Shown one piece after another: positions 1 to 8,961 of a stretch of DNA of 8,961 nucleotides; within the stretch, counting starts at the first letter, position 1, and each line of letters starts with the position of its first letter. Below the pieces are notes generated by a model. The model was not told the origin of the DNA, ran no database searches, and worked only from the letters and a program-made list of their open reading frames with translations. The stretch comes from a virus (Duplodnaviria > Heunggongvirae > Uroviricota > Caudoviricetes): IMG/VR virus record IMGVR_UViG_2534682331_000006. One strand, given 5' to 3'. A program made the translations under genes and the position numbers.

Positions 1-323
1 AACTGGCGAAAGCGTTCGCATACGCCCTGAACCAGTGGCCGGCGCTGACGTACTATGCAGATGATGGCTGGGCTGAGGCGGACAATAACATCGCTGAAAA
101 TGCGTTGCGGATGGTCAGTCTGGGCCGCAAAAACTACCTGTTCTTCGGTTCGGATCATGGAGGAGAGCGGGGAGCGCTGCTGTACAGCCTGATCGGGACG
201 TGCAAACTGAACGGAGTGGAGCCAGAAAGCTACCTCCGCTATGTCCTTGACGTCATAGCCGACTGGCCGATAAACCGGGTCGGCGAACTGCTCCCCTGGC
301 GCGTAGCACTGCCGACTGAATAA
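1..323 (+). CDS. IS66-family transposase (TnpC-like), C-terminal fragment; 5' end lies outside the window
   Basis: Reading frame is open from position 3 to the TAA at 321..323. Translation (...LAKAFAYALNQWPALTYYADDGWAEADNNIAENALRMVSLGRKNYLFFGSDHGGERGALLYSLIGTCKLNGVEPESYLRYVLDVIADWPINRVGELLPWRVALPTE) matches my recollection of the conserved C-terminus of IS66-family TnpC. An identical protein is encoded on the - strand at the other end of the window. Confidence 0.85.
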   Translation, partial: LAKAFAYALNQWPALTYYADDGWAEADNNIAENALRMVSLGRKNYLFFGSDHGGERGALLYSLIGTCKLNGVEPESYLRYVLDVIADWPINRVGELLPWRVALPTE

Positions 324-360
324 CACATCCCCGTCAATACGGTTCTTGCTGCACGCTTAC
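1..360 (+). mobile_element. IS66-family insertion sequence, terminal fragment (element continues left of window); transposase-distal end faces the phage genes
   Basis: Carries the C-terminal end of an IS66-type TnpC transposase (1..323) and ends ...GCACGCTTAC at 360, the complement of the GTAAGCG terminus typical of the IS66 family. Positions 1..360 are the reverse complement of 8571..8930 (checked by hand on 1..60 and 241..360; the two ORF translations are identical). Identity stops exactly at 360/361. Confidence 0.85.
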
Positions 361-2213
361 ATATCACCCACATTAATCTCCATATCAATTCACCGGGTGG
401 CGATGTCTTTGAAGGCATCGCCATTTTTAATGCGCTGAAAACACATGGTGCGTCCATTACCGTTTATGTCGACGGTGTGGCGGCATCAATGGCGTCGGTC
501 ATTGCGATGGTGGGAAACCCGGTCATTATGCCGGAAAACACCTTCATGATGATTCATAAACCATTTGGCTTTACGGGCGGTGATGCGGAGGACATGCGCA
601 CCTATGCCGACCTGCTCGATAAAGTTGAGGCGGTTCTGTTACCCGCTTATGCACAGAAAACCGGGAAAACCACCGATGAAATTGCTGCCATGCTGGCGGA
701 TGAGACCTGGATGTCCGGTGCCGAATGTCTGGCACATGGATTTGCTGATCAGGTGACGCCAGCCGTTAAGGCAATGGCATGTATTCAGTCAAAACGTACA
801 GAGGAATTTAAAAAGATGCCGGAATCCATTCGAAACATGATTACTCCGCCACGCAACAGTGCTCCACGCGTACAGGATAATGAACCTGCAGCTTCCCGGA
901 CGCCAGTGCAGGCAGCAGCACCCGTGGTGGATGAAAACAGTATCCGTGCGCAGGTACTGGCAGAGCAAAAAGCGCGTGTAAACGGTATTAATGATCTGTT
1001 TGCCATGTTTGGCGGGCGTTATCAGACGCTGCAGGCTCAGTGTCTTGCCGATCCTGAATGTTCGCTGGAGCAGGCCCGCGAAAAGCTGTTGAACGAGATG
1101 GGGCGCGAGTCCACGCCATCCAATAAAAATACCCCGGCTCATATTTATGCCGGTAACGGTAATTTTGTGGGGGACGGGATCCGCCAGGCGCTGATGGCGC
1201 GTGCCGGATTTGAAAAAACCGAACGTGATAATGTCTACAACGGGATGACCCTGCGTGAATATGCCCGTATGTCACTGACTGAACGGGGTATTGGGGTTTC
1301 CAGTTATAACCCGATGCAGATGGTCGGTGCGGCGTTCACACACAGTACGTCTGACTTCGGTAATATTCTGCTGGATGTTGCGAACAAAGCCATTCTGCAG
1401 GGCTGGGAAGATGCCCCTGAAACCTATGAACAGTGGACGCGGAAAGGTCAGTTGTCTGATTTTAAAATTGCCCATCGTGTGGGTATGGGGGGCTTCAGTG
1501 CTCTGCGTCAGGTGCGTGAAGGGGCGGAATATAAATACGTCACCACCGGAGATAAACAGGCCACTATTGCACTGGCGACCTATGGCGAGCTGTTCAGTAT
1601 CACCCGTCAGGCCATTATCAATGATGATCTGAATATGCTGACCGATGTCCCGATGAAACTGGGCCGTGCGGCGAAATCCACTATTGCCGATCTGGTTTAT
1701 GCCATTCTGACGTCTAACCCGAAAATCTCCACAGATAATGTAAGTCTGTTCGATAAAGCGAAACATGCAAACGTACTGGAGAGCGCTGCAATGGACGTGG
1801 AATCGCTGGATAAAGCCCGCCAGTTGATGCGCGTTCAGAAAGAGGGGGAGCGTCATCTGAATATTCGTCCTGCGTTCGTACTGGTACCGACGGCGATGGA
1901 GTCTGTTGCTAACCAGGTCATTCGCTCCTCAAGTGTCAAGGGGGCTGACATTAACGCCGGTATTATTAACCCGGTGAAAGATTTTGCGACCGTTATTGCA
2001 GAGCCTCGTCTTGATGATAACAGCCTGACCACCTTCTACCTGGCTGCGTCAAAAGGCTCCGATACGATTGAAGTGGCTTATCTCAACGGTGTGGATACGC
2101 CATATATTGATCAGATGGAGGGCTTCAGTGTGGATGGCGTGACAACGAAAGTGCGTATTGACGCCGGTGTCGCGCCAGTTGATCACCGCGGTCTGGTGAA
2201 ATGTACGGCGTAA
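361..2213 (+). CDS. ClpP-like prohead protease / major capsid protein fusion, 5'-truncated by the IS66 insertion (probable pseudogene; first in-frame start codons are GTG 477 and ATG 486)
   Basis: Frame is open from the IS junction to the stop at 2211..2213. Its N-terminal part reads ...INSPGGDVFEGIAIFNALKTHGASITVYVDGVAASMASVIAMVG...MIHKP, which resembles ClpP (INSPGG; catalytic Ser in a GxAASM-like motif; His in MIHxP), but the roughly 60 residues that precede INSPGG in ClpP are missing and no start codon lies upstream of 477. The roughly 370 C-terminal residues look like an HK97-fold major capsid domain, joined by an Ala/Pro/Gln-rich linker. The architecture matches prophage proteins annotated as ClpP-like prohead protease/major capsid fusion. 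Subfamily assignment needs an HMM search. Confidence 0.8.
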
Positions 2214-2236
2214 ACGTCGCAGACAACAACTCTGAT

Positions 2237-2256
2237 GGCCCGTAAGGGCTTTTTTT
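2237..2256 (+). terminator. Putative intrinsic terminator downstream of the major capsid gene
   Basis: Short GC stem gccc/gggc (2238..2241 with 2246..2249) closed by a GNRA-type tetraloop GTAA (2242..2245), followed by a T run (2250..2256), 24 nt after the capsid stop codon. The stem is short, so termination is probably partial. Confidence 0.5.
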
Positions 2257-2299
2257 GTACCTGAAATCAGCCCCTGAACGGGGCTGTGCGGAGACAGTT

Positions 2300-2623
2300 A
2301 TGGCAAAGAATTTTGTAGAAGAAGGAAAAACGGTGGCGATTGTTGCCAGTGCAGCCATCAGCAGTGGAGATCTGGTGCAGGTGGGGGATGTTTTTGCGGT
2401 AGCGCTGACCGATATTCCACAGGGTGAAACAGGCGACGGCCTGACCGAAGGTGTGTTTATGCTGCCTAAGCTGAAAACGGATGACATGAAAACGGGTAAG
2501 AAGGTTTATCTGAAGTCCGGAAAAGTTCAGTTGACTAACAGCGGCTCTGATCCGCTGGTCGGGGTTGTCTGGGCAGATGCCGGAACCAGTGCAGAAGAAG
2601 TGCCGGTAAAACTCAATGTCTGA
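2300..2623 (+). CDS. Small head protein, DUF2190-like (possible capsid decoration/cement protein)
   Basis: 107-aa ORF directly downstream of the major capsid gene; ATG at 2300 preceded by GGAGAC (2289..2294). Gly/Val-rich, predicted beta-rich sequence (MAKNFVEEGKTVAIVASAAISSGDLVQVGDVFAVAL...) of the kind found next to HK97-type capsid genes. The longer ORF-track start at 2255 lacks an RBS and overlaps the terminator hairpins. Confidence 0.5.
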   Translation: MAKNFVEEGKTVAIVASAAISSGDLVQVGDVFAVALTDIPQGETGDGLTEGVFMLPKLKTDDMKTGKKVYLKSGKVQLTNSGSDPLVGVVWADAGTSAEEVPVKLNV

Positions 2624-2891
2624 TCCCTTTTCCCGGCTGGCAGCGCGTATGGATGCGATCACGGTCAGAAAGATGGGAAAGACAGCCTCGATTAATGATG
2701 TCGATATGACTGTGATCCCGGGAGAAACACTGGCAGAGCTGAATGCTCTGTCCGGACCTGCGGTCTCTCTGGTGGTGTTTTCTTCGGGATACCGCCCACG
2801 GCGCGGGGATCGCGTTGTTTATGACGGACAACAATGGACGGTCACACGGCATGAACGCTTTAACGGTAAGCCAATGATCTTTATTGAGTAA
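2616..2891 (+). CDS. Head-tail joining protein, lambda FII-like
   Basis: 91-aa ORF whose ATG overlaps the upstream stop (ATGTCTGA), suggesting translational coupling. Position between the head genes and Z, and the C-terminal motif RRGDRVVYDGQQWTV, resemble my recollection of lambda FII (RRGD...). Homology not verified by search. Confidence 0.6.
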   Translation: MSDPFSRLAARMDAITVRKMGKTASINDVDMTVIPGETLAELNALSGPAVSLVVFSSGYRPRRGDRVVYDGQQWTVTRHERFNGKPMIFIE

Positions 2892-2902
2892 AGAGGTGTG
2901 GG

Positions 2903-3493
2903 ATGAAGGGGCTTGAGAATGCTATCCGCAATCTGAACAGCCTTGATACCCGTATGGTGCCACAGGCCAGCGCATGGGCGATAAACCGTGTGGCACAGAA
3001 AGCGGTCTCGGTTGCCACCCGGCAGGTTGCCGGGAATACCGTTGCGGGAGATAACCAGGTGAAAGGGATCCCCCTGAAACTGGTACGTCAGCGTGTCCGG
3101 GTGTTTAAAGCCAGTCCGTCAGGAAAAATGACGGCCAGGATCCGCGTTAACCGGGGCAATCTGCCCACCATCAAGCTGAACACAACACGGCGGCGTGCTG
3201 GTGAAGGATTGAGAGTGGGAAAATACTTTTTCCGGGGGGCATTTATTCAGCAACTGGCGAATGGCCGCTGGCATGTTCTGAGGCGTCTTCCTGAAGCGCG
3301 TTTTGCAACAGGGCATGACCATCAGGGCAGGCCAAGAAAAAATCGTCTTCCTGTGGAGGTAGTGAAAATCCCGCTGTCCGGACCGCTGACACAGGCATTT
3401 GAAGATGCCCGCGACCGCATCATTGCTGCGGAAATGCCGAAACAGCTGGGGTATGCACTGAAACAACAACTGAGGTTATGGCTGACCCGATGA
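2903..3493 (+). CDS. Z: Minor tail protein Z (lambda gpZ family)
   Basis: 196 aa (lambda Z is about 192 aa); RBS AGAGG at 2892..2896, 6 nt before the ATG. N-terminus MKGLENAIRNLNSL..., internal GAFIQQLANGRWHV and C-terminus ...VVKIPLSGPLTQAF...LGYALKQQLRLW match my recollection of lambda Z. Synteny is Z-U-V-G-T-H. Confidence 0.85.
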   Translation: MKGLENAIRNLNSLDTRMVPQASAWAINRVAQKAVSVATRQVAGNTVAGDNQVKGIPLKLVRQRVRVFKASPSGKMTARIRVNRGNLPTIKLNTTRRRAGEGLRVGKYFFRGAFIQQLANGRWHVLRRLPEARFATGHDHQGRPRKNRLPVEVVKIPLSGPLTQAFEDARDRIIAAEMPKQLGYALKQQLRLWLTR

Positions 3494-3891
3494 ACCGACA
3501 TACACAAATCCGCCAGGTCGTACTAGCACGCCTTCGGAAACAGTGTGGAGACAGCGCCACGTTTTTTGACGGGCTTCCGGCATTTGTTGATGCGCAGGAA
3601 CTGCCTGCCGTGGCGGTGTGGCTGAGTGATGCTCAGTACACCGGAAAAATGACGGATGAAGATGACTGGCAGGCTGTTCTGCATATTGCTGTCTTCATCC
3701 GGGCACAGGCACCGGATTCAGAGCTGGATATGTGGATGGAGAGCACCATTTTCCCGGCCCTGAATGATATACCGGCACTTTCCGGACTCATCGACACCCT
3801 GATCCCACTCGGTTTTAACTATCAACGTGATAATGAGATGGCCACCTGGGCGATGGCGGAAATCACGTACCAGATCACGTACACGAATTAA
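3490..3891 (+). CDS. U: Tail terminator protein U (lambda gpU family)
   Basis: 133 aa from ATG 3490, which overlaps the Z stop (ATGA). Motifs ATFFDG, LPAVAVWL, AQYTG, PDSELDMWMES and DIPALS match lambda U as I recall it. The ORF track offers an alternative start at 3478 (4 codons longer); 3490 aligns better with lambda U. Confidence 0.85.
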   Translation: MNRHTQIRQVVLARLRKQCGDSATFFDGLPAFVDAQELPAVAVWLSDAQYTGKMTDEDDWQAVLHIAVFIRAQAPDSELDMWMESTIFPALNDIPALSGLIDTLIPLGFNYQRDNEMATWAMAEITYQITYTN

Positions 3892-3901
3892 GGAGGTGGT
3901 A

Positions 3902-4645
3902 ATGACCACACCAAATCCACTGGCAAAAACGAAAGGTGCGGGAACGACGTTCTGGATGTATACCGGCAACGGCGATGCGTTTGCGAACCCTTTGTCGGAC
4001 ACTGACTGGTTGCGTCTTGCGATGGTGAAGGATCTGCAACCTGGCGAAATGACCGCTGATGCAGAAGATGACACTTATCTCGATGATGAAGATGCAGACT
4101 GGAAAACGACAACCCAGGGGCAGAAATCCGTCGGTGATACTTCGGCGACGCTGGCCTGGCGTCCGGGGGACAGCGGGCAGAAAAAACTGGTTCAGTTGTT
4201 CGACTCCGGTGAAGTCTGCGCGTTTCGTATCAAATATCCCAACGGTACTGTTGATGTTTTCCGTGGCTGGCTGAGTTCACTGGGTAAAACCATTGCCTCA
4301 AAAGACGTGATGACCCGCACCGTGAAAATCAGCGGTGTGGGGCGTCCGTATCTGGCAGAGGAAGGCACTGAAACCGTGGGCGTTACCGGGCTGACGGTGG
4401 CACCGGCATCTGCCAGTGTAAAAGTGGGAGCAACCACCACGCTGACCTTTACAGTAAAACCTGACGGAGCCAGTGACAAAGCGATCAGTGTGCATTCGAC
4501 AGATCCACAGACTGCCACGGTGACCCTGAACGGGCTTGTGGCCACGGTGAAAGGCGTGAAGCAGGGCAGTGTCAGCATTGTGGGCATGACTTCTGACGGC
4601 GATTTTGTGGCAGTGGCTACGGTGGCTGTCAGCGCCGCAGGTTAA
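3902..4645 (+). CDS. V: Major tail protein V (lambda gpV family) with C-terminal Ig-like domain
   Basis: 247 aa (lambda V is about 246 aa); strong RBS AAGGAGGTGG at 3890..3899 before ATG 3902. MTTPNPLAKTKGAGTTFWMY..., YLDDEDADW and FPNGTVDVFRGW match lambda V closely. The C-terminal part (GVTGLTVAPASASVKVGATTTLTFTVKPDGASDK...) is Big_2/Ig-like, as in lambda V. The ORF-track start at 3827 is an in-frame extension overlapping U with no RBS. Confidence 0.92.
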   Translation: MTTPNPLAKTKGAGTTFWMYTGNGDAFANPLSDTDWLRLAMVKDLQPGEMTADAEDDTYLDDEDADWKTTTQGQKSVGDTSATLAWRPGDSGQKKLVQLFDSGEVCAFRIKYPNGTVDVFRGWLSSLGKTIASKDVMTRTVKISGVGRPYLAEEGTETVGVTGLTVAPASASVKVGATTTLTFTVKPDGASDKAISVHSTDPQTATVTLNGLVATVKGVKQGSVSIVGMTSDGDFVAVATVAVSAAG

Positions 4646-4665
4646 CAGGACGATACTCATCATTT

Positions 4666-4689
4666 GCCCCGGTTATCCGGGGCTTTTTT
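4666..4689 (+). terminator. Rho-independent terminator downstream of V
   Basis: Perfect 7-bp GC-rich stem GCCCCGG (4666..4672) / CCGGGGC (4677..4683) with loop TTAT, immediately followed by TTTTTT (4684..4689). Lies between the V stop (4645) and the G RBS. Confidence 0.8.
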
Positions 4690-4702
4690 GCAGGTGGAGA
4701 AC

Positions 4703-5092
4703 ATGATGTTTCTGAAACAGGGCACGTTTAATTATGAAAAACAGTCCGTGGTGCTCAGTGAGCTGTCCGGGCTGCAGAGAATTGAATATCTGGCGTTTGT
4801 TCAGCAGCGAACGGCAAAGTTTGATGCCGGGGAGGGAGAACTGCCGGAGGCTGAACGACAGATTGCTTTTCTGCGGATGGGGATGGATATCAATGCCTGG
4901 CTGGTTTCCCGCTCACTGTGGAATGCGGATCAGTCTAAGGATGTAGAGACGCTTTGCGCATCCGTTATTACAACATGGTCGTATGATGCCCTGGGTGCGG
5001 GGGCGGAGATGGTTCTGTCGCTGAGCGGTATGGGGGCCATTGATAATGCCGGGGATGATGAGCATGAGGCGCTGACGCCGGAAAAGTCCTGA
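4703..5092 (+). CDS. G: Tail assembly chaperone G (lambda gpG family)
   Basis: 129 aa from ATG 4703, with a second ATG at 4706; RBS GGTGGAGA at 4693..4700. MMFLKQGTFNYEKQSVVLSELSGLQRIEYLAF resembles lambda G (MFLK...VTLSELSALQRIEHLA). The ORF-track start at 4664 would lie inside the upstream terminator. Confidence 0.85.
   Translation: MMFLKQGTFNYEKQSVVLSELSGLQRIEYLAFVQQRTAKFDAGEGELPEAERQIAFLRMGMDINAWLVSRSLWNADQSKDVETLCASVITTWSYDALGAGAEMVLSLSGMGAIDNAGDDEHEALTPEKS
5080..5086 (+). other. Candidate -1 programmed ribosomal frameshift site joining G to T (GGAAAAG)
   Basis: The T reading frame is -1 relative to G and is open only from 5068, so any shift must occur within 5068..5089. The only slippery-looking sequence there is G GAA AAG (G frame). 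Lambda uses G GGA AAG at the same place. A -1 slip on AAG to AAA would give ...ALTPEK-VLTREMQFVMRLAREF... Confidence 0.55.
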
Positions 5093-5100
5093 CGCGGGAA

Positions 5101-5430
5101 ATGCAGTTTGTCATGCGGCTTGCCCGGGAGTTCCGGCGGGCAGACTGGCGGCGGATGCTGTCGGAAATGTCGGCCACTGAGCTTGGTGAGTGGGGCGATT
5201 ATTTCCGGATGCAGAGCTTCAGTGATGTGTGGATGGATGCGCAGTTTGCCTCGCTGAAGGCATTGATCGTGAGAATGGTGTCCGGCAGCAGTGATGCTGC
5301 GGTGGCTGATTTCAGCCTTTTACCGGAAGAGAACGGGATACCGGAGCGAACGGACGAAGAACTGATGCATCTTGGAGAAGGTATTTCCGGAGGTGTGCGT
5401 TATGGACCAGATAGCCAACCTGGTCATTGA
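5101..5430 (+). CDS. T: Tail assembly chaperone T-domain ORF (lambda gpT family), expected to be made only as a G-T fusion by -1 frameshifting
   Basis: -1 frame ORF overlapping the 3' end of G; MRLAREFRRADWRRML... resembles the start of lambda T. No RBS precedes ATG 5101 and the frame is open upstream to 5068, consistent with frameshift expression. Coordinates are those of the ORF-track segment. Confidence 0.75.
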   Translation: MQFVMRLAREFRRADWRRMLSEMSATELGEWGDYFRMQSFSDVWMDAQFASLKALIVRMVSGSSDAAVADFSLLPEENGIPERTDEELMHLGEGISGGVRYGPDSQPGH

Positions 5431-8400
5431 TTTGGGGATTGATGCGGCAGAGTTTAAAAATGAAATTCCCCGTATCAAAAACCTTCTGAATGGTGCCGCC
5501 AGCGATGCAGAACGGTCTTCTGCCCGTATGCAGCGTTTTATGGAGCGTCAGACTCAGGCCGCCCGGCAGACAACGCAGGCGGCTTCTTCGGCTGCAACAG
5601 CCGCCTCCGTCCATGCGCAGACGGTGGAGAAGAACGCACAGGCTCATGAACGCATGGCCCGCGAGGTGGAGAAAACCCGCCAGCGCATGGAGGCGCTGAG
5701 CCAGAAAATGCGCGATGAACAGGCGCAGGCCATGGCTCTGGCGGAGGCTCAGGATAAAGCGGCTGCTGCGTTTTATCGTCAGATTGACAGTGTGAAACAG
5801 GCCAGTGCGGGGCTGCAGGAATTACAGCGTATTCAGCAGCAGATCCGACAGGCCAGAAACAGTGGCGGGATTGGTCAGCAGGATTATCTGGCGCTGATTT
5901 CTGAGGTTACGGCGAAAACCCGTGTTCTTACACAGGCTGAGGAAGAGGCTACCCGACAGAAAGTGGCGTTTATCCGTCAGCTTAAAGAGCAGGCAACCCG
6001 CCAGAATCTTTCTTCTTCTGAGTTGCTTCGTGCTAAGGCTGCCCAGCTGGGGGTAAGCAGTGCTGCAGAAGTGTATATCCGCAAAATGGAGCAGGCAGGA
6101 AAAGCCACGCATTCGCTGGGTCTGAAAAGTGCAGCGGCCCGCCAGGAGATAGGCGTTCTGATAGGTGAACTGGCTCGCGGCAATTTAGGTGCGCTGAGGG
6201 GATCCGGGATAACGCTGGCTAACCGTGCCGGATGGATAGACACACTGATGTCACCGAAAGGCATGATGCTGGGCGGGGTTATTGGCGGTATTGCCGCGGC
6301 CGTCTATGGTCTGGGTAAAGCCTGGTATGACGGTCAGAAGGAGGGGGAAGAATTTAACCGCCAGTTGTCGCTGACGGGGCATTATGCCGGAGTCACTGCC
6401 GGGCAGCTGTGGACGCTCAGTCGTGCTATTTCCGGGAATGGTATCACGCAACATGCTGCAGCCGGTGCGCTGGCTCAGGTGGTGGGGAGTGGTGCATTTC
6501 GTGGAAACGATATCGGTATGGTGGCGAGAGCTGCCGCACAGATGGAGCGATCGGTTGGCCAGTCGGTCAGCGATACCATAAGTCAGTTTAAGCGGCTGAA
6601 GGATGATCCTGTAAATGCCGCGAAGGCTCTGGACAATGAGCTGCATTTTCTTACTGCCACTCAGCTTGAGCAGATACGCGTCCTTGGGGAACAGGGGCGG
6701 TCCAGTGATGCGGCACGGATAGCCATGTCTGCACTGGCAGAGGAAACCGGTCGGCGTACTGCGGATATTGATAATAACCTCAATGCGCTGGGCAGTACGC
6801 TGAAGTATCTGTCTGATTTATGGAGTCGTTTCTGGGATGCGGCCATGAATATTGGTCGTGAAGACTCGCTGGATGAACAGATTTCCGCTTTACAGGAGAA
6901 AGTGTCGCGGGCGAAAAGACTCCCCTGGACGGCATCATCTTCTCAGGTTGAGTACGATCAGCAGCGTCTTAACGAGCTTCAGGAGAAAAAACGCCAGAAG
7001 GATTTGCAGGATGCAAAAGAGCAGGCAGAGCGGAATTATCAGGAGCAACAGAAACGCCGTAATGCTGAAAATGCTGCACTGAACCGGATGAATGAAACGG
7101 AAGCAGCACGACATCAGCGTGAAATTGCGCGTATTAATGCCATGCAGTACGCCGATCAGGCTGTCAGGGATGCGGCGATACAACGTGAAAATGAACGTTA
7201 CGAGAAAGCCCTGGCATCCGGTAAGAAAAAAACACGCGAAACCCGTAATGATGAGGCCACCCGGTTATTGCTGCAGTACAGTCAGCAACAGGCACAGGTG
7301 GAAGGACAGATTGCTGCTGCAAGACAGTCAGCAGGCATTGCCACTGACAGGATGACAGAAGCGCATAAACAGCTTCTGGCTCTGCAGCAGCGCATCAGCG
7401 ATCTGGACGGGAAAAAACTGACGGCAGATGAAAAGAGTGTGCTGGCCCGTAAAGATGAACTGATTCAGGCACTGACGCTGCTGGATGTAAAACAGCAGGA
7501 GCTTCAGAAACAGACGGCACTCAACGATCTGAAGAAAAAAACAATTCAGCTGACCAGTCAACTGGCTGAAGAAGAGCGCGCTCAGCGCCAGCAACATGAC
7601 CTGGATATCGCCACGGTGGGTATGGGTGATCAGCAGCGGCAGCGATATCAGGTACAACTGAGTCTTCGCCAGAAATACCAGCAACAGCTGGAGCAGTTGA
7701 GGCGGGATAGTGAGCAGAAAGGAACATATAACACGGATGACTACAGAAAGGCCGAGCAGGCGCTGACGGAGAGCCTGAACCGACAACTGAATGAGAATCG
7801 CCGTTATTGGCAACAGCTTGAAATTGCTCAGGGTGACTGGAAAAACGGAGTCCTGCGTGCACTCCAGAATGTCACTGAGAAAGCGGATAACACAGCCGGG
7901 ACAGTGGAACAGTTGTTCACGTCTGCGTTCAGTAGCATGAGTGACTGGCTGGCGACATTCTGTACTACAGGCAAACTCAATTTCAAATCCTTCACCTCTT
8001 CTGTGCTGTCAGATATGTCCAGAATCATGGCTCAGATAGCTTTAATGAAAGCGGTAAAAGGTATTGCTTCCGCGCTGCCTTTTGATTTTGTAGCCAATGC
8101 TGATGGCGGTGTTTATCAGTCGGCTGATTTGAGTCGCTACAGTGGCACGGTGGTTAACCGTCCGACGTTTTTTGCTTTTGCAAAAGGCGCGGGTGTGATG
8201 GGGGAAGCTGGACCTGAAGCCATTCTGCCACTGCGTCGTGGTGCTGACGGTAAGCTGGGGGTTGTGGCGGATATTGGTGGTTCAGGTATGGCGATGTTTG
8301 CCCCGCAGTACAACATCGAGATCAATAACGATGGCACGAACGGGCAGATAGGTCCGGCTGCCCTGAAGGTGGTTTATGACCTTGGGAAAAAAGCGGCAGC

Positions 8401-8458
8401 GGACTTTATGCAACAGCAGGCCCGTGATGGTGGTCGGTTAAGTGGAGCATATCGGTAA
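5402..8458 (+). CDS. H: Tail tape measure protein H (lambda gpH family)
   Basis: 1018 aa from ATG 5402; RBS GGAGG at 5389..5393. N-terminus MDQIANLVIDLGIDAAEF resembles lambda H (...GDLVVDLSLDAARF...), and the C-terminus ...INNDGTNGQIGPAALKVVYDLGKKAAADFMQQQARDGG matches the lambda H C-terminus. Long Ala/Gln/Glu/Arg-rich predicted coiled-coil regions in between. The ORF track's TTG start at 5372 is less likely. Confidence 0.92.
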   Translation: MDQIANLVIDLGIDAAEFKNEIPRIKNLLNGAASDAERSSARMQRFMERQTQAARQTTQAASSAATAASVHAQTVEKNAQAHERMAREVEKTRQRMEALSQKMRDEQAQAMALAEAQDKAAAAFYRQIDSVKQASAGLQELQRIQQQIRQARNSGGIGQQDYLALISEVTAKTRVLTQAEEEATRQKVAFIRQLKEQATRQNLSSSELLRAKAAQLGVSSAAEVYIRKMEQAGKATHSLGLKSAAARQEIGVLIGELARGNLGALRGSGITLANRAGWIDTLMSPKGMMLGGVIGGIAAAVYGLGKAWYDGQKEGEEFNRQLSLTGHYAGVTAGQLWTLSRAISGNGITQHAAAGALAQVVGSGAFRGNDIGMVARAAAQMERSVGQSVSDTISQFKRLKDDPVNAAKALDNELHFLTATQLEQIRVLGEQGRSSDAARIAMSALAEETGRRTADIDNNLNALGSTLKYLSDLWSRFWDAAMNIGREDSLDEQISALQEKVSRAKRLPWTASSSQVEYDQQRLNELQEKKRQKDLQDAKEQAERNYQEQQKRRNAENAALNRMNETEAARHQREIARINAMQYADQAVRDAAIQRENERYEKALASGKKKTRETRNDEATRLLLQYSQQQAQVEGQIAAARQSAGIATDRMTEAHKQLLALQQRISDLDGKKLTADEKSVLARKDELIQALTLLDVKQQELQKQTALNDLKKKTIQLTSQLAEEERAQRQQHDLDIATVGMGDQQRQRYQVQLSLRQKYQQQLEQLRRDSEQKGTYNTDDYRKAEQALTESLNRQLNENRRYWQQLEIAQGDWKNGVLRALQNVTEKADNTAGTVEQLFTSAFSSMSDWLATFCTTGKLNFKSFTSSVLSDMSRIMAQIALMKAVKGIASALPFDFVANADGGVYQSADLSRYSGTVVNRPTFFAFAKGAGVMGEAGPEAILPLRRGADGKLGVVADIGGSGMAMFAPQYNIEINNDGTNGQIGPAALKVVYDLGKKAAADFMQQQARDGGRLSGAYR

Positions 8459-8574
8459 TGGAGACGTTTCACTGGAAAGTGCGCCCGGATATGAATGTGG
8501 TATCAGAGCCGAAAGTGGTGACAGTGAAGCTGGGCGATGGTTATGAACAGCGTCGTGCGGCGGGACTGAAGTAA
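8458..8574 (+). pseudogene. M: Minor tail protein M (lambda gpM family), truncated after codon 37 by the IS66 insertion
   Basis: ATG at 8458 overlaps the H stop (TAATG). Translation METFHWKVRPDMNVVSEPKVVTVKLGDGYEQRRAAGL matches the lambda M N-terminus (MKTFRWKVKPGMDVASVP...GDGYSQRAPAGL...). The frame then runs into the IS terminus GTAAGCG at 8571, which supplies the last codon and a TAA stop. Lambda M is about 109 aa. Confidence 0.85.
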
Positions 8575-8961
8575 GCGTGCAGCAAGAACCGTATTGACGG
8601 GGATGTGTTATTCAGTCGGCAGTGCTACGCGCCAGGGGAGCAGTTCGCCGACCCGGTTTATCGGCCAGTCGGCTATGACGTCAAGGACATAGCGGAGGTA
8701 GCTTTCTGGCTCCACTCCGTTCAGTTTGCACGTCCCGATCAGGCTGTACAGCAGCGCTCCCCGCTCTCCTCCATGATCCGAACCGAAGAACAGGTAGTTT
8801 TTGCGGCCCAGACTGACCATCCGCAACGCATTTTCAGCGATGTTATTGTCCGCCTCAGCCCAGCCATCATCTGCATAGTACGTCAGCGCCGGCCACTGGT
8901 TCAGGGCGTATGCGAACGCTTTCGCCAGTTCTGAGTGTCGCGACAGGGTTTTCATCTTTTC
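8571..8961 (-). mobile_element. IS66-family insertion sequence, terminal fragment (element continues right of window); inverted relative to the left copy
   Basis: Begins GTAAGCGTGCAGCAAGAACCGTATTGACGGGGATGTG at 8571; 8571..8930 is the reverse complement of 1..360. Encodes the same TnpC C-terminus on the - strand. Flanking bases differ from those at the left copy (GGACTGAA at 8563..8570 versus ATATCACC at 361..368), so these are two separate junctions. Confidence 0.85.
8608..8961 (-). CDS. IS66-family transposase (TnpC-like), C-terminal fragment; 5' end lies outside the window
   Basis: - strand frame open from the window edge to the stop at 8608..8610. The translation contains the same 72-aa C-terminus as the left copy plus 43 further upstream residues (MKTLSRHSELAKAFAYALNQWPALTYYADDGWAEADNNIAENAL...). 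Confidence 0.85.
   Translation of the reverse strand, partial: EKMKTLSRHSELAKAFAYALNQWPALTYYADDGWAEADNNIAENALRMVSLGRKNYLFFGSDHGGERGALLYSLIGTCKLNGVEPESYLRYVLDVIADWPINRVGELLPWRVALPTE

Follow-up and report, generated by a model that had tools for sequence, protein, structure and literature searches.

Two sequential ISEc22 insertions probably bound an 8.2-kb lambda-like prophage segment in an ETEC draft genome

Why should a block of lambda-like head and tail genes begin and end in the same insertion sequence (IS), with the two IS ends in inverted orientation? The question is raised by the window analysed here, a stretch of 8,961 bp in which 8.2 kb of lambda-like prophage lies between two ISEc22 ends, one on the side of the capsid gene and one on the side of tail gene M. 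The window is the entire contig APYH01000055.1, which belongs to the draft genome of a diarrhoeal E. coli of the ETEC isolate series P0299438. The original prediction described a head-tail module stripped of its neighbours on both sides and considered two independent insertions, an IS-mediated deletion or inversion, or a composite segment able to move as a unit. Most probably, in our assessment, the window is a repeat-bounded draft contig from a prophage that was hit by two sequential ISEc22 insertions.

Inverted ISEc22 ends

A repeat search of the window recovered the two arms that had been noted, 1-360 and 8571-8930, which are 100% complementary over 360 nt and have 8,210 nt between them; a perfect inverted repeat of this length cannot have originated by chance. 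The left arm (copy A, 1-360, + strand) carries the last 106 codons of tnpC, the stop codon TAA (321-323), and the terminus CGCTTAC (354-360). The right-hand IS sequence (copy B, 8571-8961, - strand) is inverted relative to copy A, starts with the terminus GTAAGCG (8571-8577), and holds the last 117 tnpC codons before the contig end cuts it off. A C-terminal transposase segment of the IS66 family is encoded in the arms (Pfam DDE_Tnp_IS66, 2e-18; DDE_Tnp_IS66_C, 1.3e-17), and on both sides the transposase is read toward the phage DNA. The left edge (360/361) reads GCTGCACGCTTAC followed directly by ATATCACC, and the right edge (8570/8571) reads GGACTGAA followed by GTAAGCGTGCAGC.

On the right, all IS bases (391/391) agree with the final 391 nt of the complete 2,454-bp ISEc22 copy in strain CDF6, and the left arm matches this right end at 100% over its 360 nt, the reference being a RefSeq copy annotated 'ISEc22 family' and not the ISfinder entry itself. 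Since the ends of the CDF6 element are fixed by an 8-bp target duplication, the point at which the identity breaks is the exact IS terminus. Both arms are thus right (IRR) ends, and it was correctly predicted that identity stops at the terminus GTAAGCG and that the transposase 3' end faces the phage DNA on either side. Two IRR ends require at least two IS copies.

ISEc22 is listed as an IS66-family element of 2,454 bp (PMC5001619). Its terminal inverted repeats, 5'-GTAAGCG, are present as IRR at 354-360 (reverse complement) and 8571-8577, and as IRL (GTAAGCGTCGTC) on two sibling contigs (L012 and L013), whose IRL ends are identical to ISEc22 at 507/509 and 430/431 nt. The copies at this locus are assembled in part only, with the C-terminal 106-117 codons of tnpC in the window and tnpA on L012; the full tnpA-tnpB-tnpC organisation is seen in complete-genome copies with identical ends. 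The description of two identical copies therefore holds for the terminal 360-nt stretch and does not extend past the 360-391 nt known of each copy, as both are cut by contig ends, the left arm stopping at base 1 because the contig stops there.

Phage genes between the IS ends

The enclosed gene content is as originally described, with lambda-type tail genes Z-U-V-G-T-H-M in syntenic order after a head module, Pfam hits for every gene, and all genes on the + strand. The 3' part of a fusion gene for a ClpP-like prohead protease and major capsid protein (361-2213) is followed by a head cement/decoration-like protein (2300-2623; DUF2190, Phage_cement_2 in Pfam), a Gifsy-2-family small head-tail protein (2616-2891), minor tail protein Z (2903-3493; Minor_tail_Z, 5e-57), and tail terminator U (3490-3891; Phage_tail_U, 8.5e-61). 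Next come the major tail tube protein V with a C-terminal Big_2 domain (3902-4645), the tail assembly chaperones G and T (4706-5430; G at 4706-5092, T at 5101-5430 in the -1 frame relative to G), an intact tape measure protein H of 1,018 aa (5402-8458), and M, cut after codon 37.

The proposed comparison with intact relatives placed both insertion sites. The phage core is identical at 8,208/8,210 positions to the prophage of E. coli 602354, which is uninterrupted and collinear and shows the sites to lie in the protease-capsid gene and in M. The two differences, at 1801 and 2386, look like consensus errors; scattered errors of this kind are present in the P0299438 assemblies, and the sibling contigs match at all compared sites. 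The ETEC clone came from a Bangladeshi patient, and its intact-prophage counterpart is another Bangladeshi isolate.

Assembly and recurrence of the junctions

The P0299438 genomes were sequenced on the HiSeq platform from short-insert (300-bp) Illumina libraries and assembled with Celera. Of 5,426 complete E. coli genomes, 3,424 carry ISEc22-like ends, at up to 12 places per genome. Given a short-insert assembly and a multicopy IS, the window ends are contig breaks within ISEc22 and not ends of the DNA.

A short-read draft contig that ends in a repeat, from assemblies with scattered consensus errors, could in principle have gained its arms by mis-joining or repeat collapse, with one IS or none at the locus. 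Such an artefact is very improbable and is effectively refuted by the recurrence of the structure, by the two IRR arms, which a single copy cannot supply, and by a matching outer junction with an 8-bp duplication, described below. Both inner junctions are present in APYB, APYC, APYE, APYF, and APYH and on one further NCBI contig (probably from APYG), so that five other named P0299438 assemblies share the IS-bounded contig and, together with the window, probably all six majority isolates carry it. The six Celera assemblies recovered both junctions independently and with varying arm lengths, k-mer assemblies (Logan contigs) from at least eight SRA runs contain both, and one of the junctions also appears in an unrelated assembly project (L003). 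The repeats are therefore real, and their edges, at the exact ISEc22 terminus, are genuine transposition junctions, as the original prediction had argued. Neither inner junction was found in any of the 5,426 complete E. coli genomes with 120-nt junction queries, of which only the halves match. An IS match in strain EC13 that seemingly ran into 'ClpP' belongs to an unrelated P22-like prophage and has the opposite orientation.

Insertion in the protease-capsid gene

Copy A separates the first 58 codons and 1 nt of the protease-capsid gene, which encodes 675 aa in the intact prophage, from the part in the window. The first in-frame start of the split gene is a GTG at 477; the 578-aa open reading frame beginning there had no exact match on record in an exact look-up, and the annotators' start is the ATG at 1167. 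The window also has a private E/A difference at 1801.

The far side of copy A is found at the end of a sibling contig of about 96 kb. This contig runs from Q and the lysis genes through terminase and portal to protease codons 1-61, with ATATCACC followed directly by the IS left end GTAAGCGTCGTC and tnpA. The 8 bp at 361-368, ATATCACC, thus recur on the sibling contigs APYG01000059.1 and APYC01000018.1, where they precede the left end of the IS, and the target-site duplication and the missing half of the gene that were to be sought for this copy both exist. In addition, the far-left fusion protein that was predicted (...NALGDIT + VSVVSAPSGRS) has an exact counterpart, P0019, at the end of the 96-kb contigs. 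Copy A is a simple insertion flanked by an 8-bp duplication of its target. The original claim that terminase, portal, and everything else upstream had been lost is not correct: the window is a complete draft contig ending in a repeat, and the upstream genes are on another contig.

Insertion in M

On the right, the truncated gene M' (8458-8574, + strand) comprises 37 phage codons, a Lys codon, and a TAA stop read across the IS-terminus junction, and encodes 38 aa. Judging from the junction and from reference duplications, copy B is predicted to have duplicated the 8 bp GGACTGAA at 8563-8570. On the far side of this copy, the IS left end would adjoin GGACTGAA-TAACCAGTTG (the rest of M), giving a predicted junction of GACGACGCTTAC followed by GGACTGAATAACCAGTTG that would run on into L, K, I, and J; the passage from the ISEc22 left end to the rest of M would be marked by GACGACGCTTACGGACTGAATAACCAGTTG.

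When viral, GTDB-representative, and JGI metagenome contigs were scanned for exact DNA patterns, no second copy of GGACTGAA from the far side of copy B was returned. These scans are uninformative either way, because the control inner right junction was likewise absent from the viral contigs, the sole collection where it was tried, and the collections seem not to hold these draft assemblies. A homologue search for the M remainder yielded only full-length or frameshifted M proteins. Exact look-ups located M remainders of 73, 69, and 64 aa in other strains, the 69-aa call being from the related strain 2726800. No P0299438 accession appears under any of these three predicted calls, which hints mildly at a remainder that is uncalled or absent. 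M, L, K, I, J, and Lom of the reference prophage are all common in exact look-ups, in which the listed names do not tell whether P0299438 carries them.

These results bear on the possibility that the ISEc22 in M caused a deletion next to it or underwent recombination with a distant copy, so that the rest of M and L-K-I-J no longer follow; "lost" would then be the correct word for the right-hand side. Consistent with such a rearrangement, neither the predicted far-right junction nor the M-remainder products were found for the P0299438 assemblies, and the 69-aa remainder of strain 2726800 was called by the same annotation centre. However, the scanned collections seem to lack these drafts, with the control junction missing as well, and a 69-aa reading frame that starts with TTG and lacks a ribosome-binding site may go uncalled. 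Copy A, moreover, is a clean simple insertion, and the remaining prophage shows no decay at all, which suggests that the events were very recent and minimal. We regard a deletion or recombination on this side as unlikely.

Order of the insertions and orientation of the segment

On contig JAAPMH010000050.1, the M junction is identical, but the 675-aa protease-capsid gene is uninterrupted and is accompanied by portal and terminase; the insertion in M is thus older than that in the capsid gene. This supports two independent insertions, the first of the explanations originally offered, as sequential events. The account we favour is that a lambda-like prophage in an ETEC lineage would have been struck by ISEc22, an IS66-family element making 8-bp target duplications, first after codon 37 of M and then after codon 58 of the protease-capsid gene. 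By happenstance, the copies would have come to lie inverted, with their transposase-distal (IRR) ends facing the intervening 8.2 kb, which would have kept its native orientation. As ISEc22 is multicopy and the inserts are 300 bp, the assembler would have been unable to cross either copy and would have stopped at both, giving the 8.2 kb as a contig of its own that extends 360 and 391 nt into the IS.

The inverted arrangement also accords with an origin of the second copy from the M copy itself, through replicative transposition within the molecule, or with later recombination between the two copies; in either case the 8.2-kb segment would be inverted or flipping. The M copy is the older one and its IRR end faces the second target, so that a replicative inversion would necessarily give the observed arrangement with both IRR ends inward, the near-end-inward orientation expected of such an event; a random independent insertion gives it one time in four. 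All four junction sequences should be the same as for a simple insertion, and the far-left junction fits both histories. Inverted repeats of 2.45 kb are, in addition, good substrates for homologous recombination. IS66-family elements are not known to transpose by way of cointegrate-type replicative intermediates, which speaks against this origin, although the mechanism of the family has been described as insufficiently characterised (PMC12898284), leaving some room for it. The orientation argument amounts to a likelihood ratio of only 4:1, other ISEc22 donors were probably available, given the frequency of ISEc22-like ends among complete genomes, and with 300-bp inserts set against a 2.45-kb IS, the short-read contigs are silent on how inner and outer junctions connect and on the orientation of the segment. 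An inverted or flipping segment is accordingly a doubtful reading in our view, and we think it quite unlikely that the inward-facing pair is specifically the replicative footprint of the older M copy in the protease-capsid gene, with the head-tail block inverted or switching. A fixed or switching inversion would provide small evidence on how IS66-family elements move, and a replicative origin would be natural evidence that such an element can use a cointegrate-type pathway.

Implications of two sequential insertions

With both the protease-capsid gene and the essential tail-tip gene M interrupted, the prophage is defective and recently inactivated, and it is not truncated upstream; as was foreseen, the locus alone cannot form virions. 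A prophage knocked out by insertion sequences is ordinary, already-known biology. The locus is nevertheless a clean, dated example, base for base like its intact Bangladeshi counterpart but for two sequential ISEc22 insertions in essential morphogenesis genes. In practical terms, when a short-read draft contains a short contig bounded by inverted IS ends, this should be taken for a repeat-bounded assembly fragment and not for a truncated or composite element, and prophage-completeness calls on such drafts will misreport the phage of the window. The lineage-specific junctions may also serve as clone markers.

Comparison with related prophages and IS systems

Over its full length, window segment 361-8570 shares 98-99% DNA identity with the lambda-like phages HannyBb, PhiR55_1, cdtI, and mEp460, and the prophage of E. 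coli 602354 / 120899 has the same gene order of protease-capsid, cement, Z, U, V, G, T, H, and M. Unlike in all of these, the protease-capsid gene and M are split by IS in the window prophage. The ISEc22 element itself is no different from known copies; only the two insertion sites are particular to the ETEC lineage.

Lambdoid prophages inactivated by IS are known from IS629 in the head region of VT1-Sakai and, among relatives of the window prophage, from ISEc22 in H or K and ISCro1 in the terminase. In these, as here, prophages that are otherwise intact have morphogenesis genes disrupted by IS insertions with target duplications, and 8-bp duplications flank three further IS66-family insertions in the same prophage family (ATATATCC, CGGTGGTT, and AAAGCCAG). 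Whereas each of those examples has a single IS insertion, the window lineage has two in one prophage, in inverted orientation.

Two inverted IS copies bracketing a segment formally resemble composite transposons of the Tn5 / Tn10 type. The proposal that the window segment moved as such a unit fails, since copy A has its own duplication at its native site, the cargo is collinear with an intact prophage, and the junctions occur in 0 of 5,426 complete E. coli genomes. In contrast to Tn5 and Tn10, the structure bears no sign of movement as a unit, and its outer ends would both be IRL, the use of which by an IS66 transposase is putative.

An ISEc22-bounded phage segment in an ETEC draft genome

An exact look-up of the 38-aa stump of tail gene M showed the window to be the whole of contig APYH01000055.1 (GCA_000357265.2, 8,961 bp), and protein names identified its source as the "E. 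coli P0299438.x" series. These isolates are ETEC colonies from a single patient in Dhaka, for which HiSeq 2000 sequencing used 300-bp inserts and Celera Assembler built the drafts (PMC4462620). A repeat finder returned inverted arms at 1-360 and 8571-8930, 100% complementary over 360 nt and spaced by 8,210 nt, and no further repeats longer than about 33 nt within the window. The phage DNA begins at 360/361 (...TTGCTGCACGCTTAC/ATATCACCCAC) and ends at 8570/8571 (...GCGGGACTGAA/GTAAGCGTGCAGCAA), and both arms code for the last 106-117 residues of a DDE transposase of the IS66 type, whose reading direction is towards the phage DNA, bearing out the original prediction of identical, inverted IS66-family arms. 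At the right end, all 391 bases of IS sequence agree with the final 391 nt of an element in E. coli CDF6 that is 2,454 bp long and annotated in RefSeq as ISEc22 family (tnpA, tnpB, tnpC). This element begins GTAAGCGTCG, finishes CGCTTAC, and has the 8-bp duplication ATATATCC on either side. Its length and family agree with the ISEc22 table entry (PMC5001619).

Since this is a draft contig from 300-bp inserts, both window ends are contig breaks within the repeat. The same contig is found in the sibling assemblies APYB, APYC, APYE, and APYF (arms of 268-316 nt left and 280-339 nt right), in one further similar contig with the same arm ranges (by elimination probably APYG), and, with arms of 28-29 nt, among the Logan k-mer contigs of at least eight runs. 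Such recurrence with varying arms is what a real structure produces when short inserts fail to span it, and a mis-join was rejected on the same grounds.

The enclosed phage DNA

The segment opens with the 3' part of a ClpP-protease/major-capsid fusion gene and further encodes a cement protein, a Gifsy-2-family protein, Z, U, V (with a Big_2 domain), G, T, a tape measure protein (1,018 aa), and the M stump. The terminal codon and stop of the stump arise where the phage DNA joins the IS terminus (CTG AA/G TAA GCG, 8568-8574), and GenBank labels it "phage minor tail family protein". At the left end (105-477), the transposase of the IS copy is in frame with the capsid gene and stops at TAA 321-323, after which no ATG, GTG, or TTG occurs in this frame before GTG 477; in the depositors' annotation, the capsid gene begins at ATG 1167 and covers only the capsid domain (348 aa). 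Relative to G, T (5101-5430) is in the -1 frame, which is open from about 5077 past the G stop (5090-5092). Within 5078-5103, CCG GAA AAG (5078-5086) occupies the position of lambda's G GGA AAG slippery site. The arrangement appears consistent with the conserved G/GT frameshift, with a non-canonical heptamer.

Positions 361-8570 are collinear with the uninterrupted prophages of E. coli 602354 (stool, Bangladesh) and 120899, and show 98-99% identity to phages HannyBb, PhiR55_1, cdtI, and mEp460. Direct comparison with 602354 gave 8,208/8,210 identities; of the two mismatches, one is 1801 (A for C), which turns a capsid-gene Ala into Glu, and the other 2386 (G for T). Both are private to the window and absent from the siblings, Logan, 602354, 120899, and L003, a one-junction contig from an unrelated assembly project. 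Three siblings (L005, L006, and L008) each have their own private T-to-G changes, all directly after GG. Rather than real SNPs, all these differences probably reflect motif-specific Illumina errors in the consensus of the Celera drafts. Because three independent contigs (L003, L007, and L009) match 602354 at every private site, the lineage's true core sequence is most likely identical to the intact prophage, and both insertions would be very recent.

Insertion into the protease-capsid gene

Comparison with related intact prophages, proposed in the original prediction as a way to locate the insertion sites, did so for both. The left target (...GCACTGGGCG/ATATCACC/CACATT) lies 1 nt past codon 58 of the protease-capsid gene. 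Simple insertion duplicating 8 bp would place protease codons 1-61 ahead of the IS left end, coding ...NALGDIT-VSVVSAPSGRS, and a homologue search found exactly this fusion (P0019, 49 aa, from an internal ATG, "E. coli P0299438.5"). Its gene is located at the end of six ~96-kb contigs. The two examined (APYG01000059.1 and APYC01000018.1) carry RusA, Q, a DNA methylase, holins, an endolysin, the small and large terminase, and the portal, followed by ...GCACTGGGCGATATCACC/GTAAGCGTCGTC... and then tnpA, with 0-1 mismatches to 602354 over the 9 kb upstream of the insertion. With the predicted fusion and the far-side junction both present, the left copy is, as judged by its junctions, a genuine simple insertion. 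The 8-bp duplication and the missing protease half that the original prediction had suggested looking for are thus on sibling upstream contigs, and the supposed loss of terminase and portal was an artefact of reading a single contig, as both genes are on the ~96-kb sibling contigs ending in the IS. In the intact reference prophage L001, a tRNA-Ile/tRNA-Arg/tRNA-Arg cluster (1460-1709) has a DNA methyltransferase gene on one side and the lysis genes on the other; this region is also found on the sibling upstream contigs L012 and L013.

Insertion into tail gene M

The right target (...GCGGCG/GGACTGAA/TAACCAG) covers codons 35-37 of M, and the 38-aa stump was used as a unique marker to find all assemblies that have this junction. 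JAAPMH010000050.1 (GCA_049980385.1) combines an identical M/IRR junction (IRR being the transposase-distal end of ISEc22) with an intact protease-capsid gene (675 aa), portal, and terminase; thus, the M insertion came first, and the capsid gene was hit later, in the P0299438 lineage. A set of 5,426 complete E. coli genomes contained neither inner junction. An identical tape measure protein was found in about 150 index blocks, with M intact at every place among the matches listed, so the uninterrupted prophage is widespread.

On the far side of the right copy, ...GACGACGCTTAC/GGACTGAA/TAACCAGTTG and an M remainder of 73, 69, or 64 aa are predicted. In the protein collection, none of these remainders occurs under P0299438 accessions, and all three occur under others (2726800, RBV..., and one contaminant). 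The predicted junction had no match in three DNA collections (viral, GTDB-representative, and JGI metagenome contigs); a control junction, sought only among the viral contigs, was not present there either. Overall, the rest of M, L, K, I, and J quite probably follows the right copy. In other strains, annotated M remainders of 73 aa begin at codon 36 and those of 69 aa at codon 41, among them P0085 (EMX79987.1, E. coli 2726800, 329-kb contig) and P0084 (RBV72337.1 and others), which suggests that M is broken at or near this position there as well. Strain 2726800 shares a colonisation-factor cluster with the P0299438 majority isolates (PMC4462620), so the far side of this insertion may be present in it.

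Orientation of the segment and consequences for the prophage

The 300-bp-insert data are compatible with a native or an inverted 8.2-kb segment alike. By transposition geometry, intramolecular replicative transposition from the M copy would give exactly this IRR-inward pair, with the same four junction sequences as simple insertion and the inverted segment as the sole difference, and recombination between the 2.45-kb inverted copies would interconvert both isomers. However, the IRR-inward orientation contributes a likelihood ratio of only 4:1, ISEc22-like ends are multicopy in most E. coli, and no replicative pathway is documented for the IS66 family, whose mechanism has been termed insufficiently characterised (PMC12898284). 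A replicative-inversion origin or a switching inversion is improbable; if true, it would be of modest interest for the IS66 mechanism.

In lambda, M is essential for the tail tip. With its major capsid/protease gene split and M cut short at codon 37, the prophage is defective, in line with the expectation that this locus alone cannot form virions.

Comparison with known systems

Relatives of this prophage in many complete genomes have independent IS66-family insertions in other morphogenesis genes, with clean 8-bp duplications like that of the left copy: ISEc22 in H (CGGTGGTT, in many isolates from poultry and humans) and in K (ATATATCC), and ISCro1 in the gene for the large terminase (AAAGCCAG), at loci listed jointly as L018 9294-11747, L010 12259-14712, and L002 about 3183-5868. 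The head-tail module seems to be repeatedly hit by IS66-family elements, and no target consensus is evident among the five insertion sites. An IS66-family element next to a truncated ClpP-like protease gene in EC13 (L011 3600-6600) belongs to a P22-like prophage unrelated to the window insertion; there, BLAST carried the IS match 11 nt into the gene through chance similarity.

The IS at this locus has the sequence of ISEc22 (identical over the 391 nt at the right end), its canonical termini, and, for the left copy, its 8-bp duplication. IS inactivation of prophage morphogenesis genes is known from IS629 in the VT1-Sakai head region, and the insertions in H, K, and terminase represent the same process in this prophage family. 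A composite transposon moved as a unit was rejected, the likeness to the Tn5/Tn10 type being one of outline only. All parts are of known kinds, namely a known IS, a known lambdoid phage family, and a well-known process, and the locus is ordinary.
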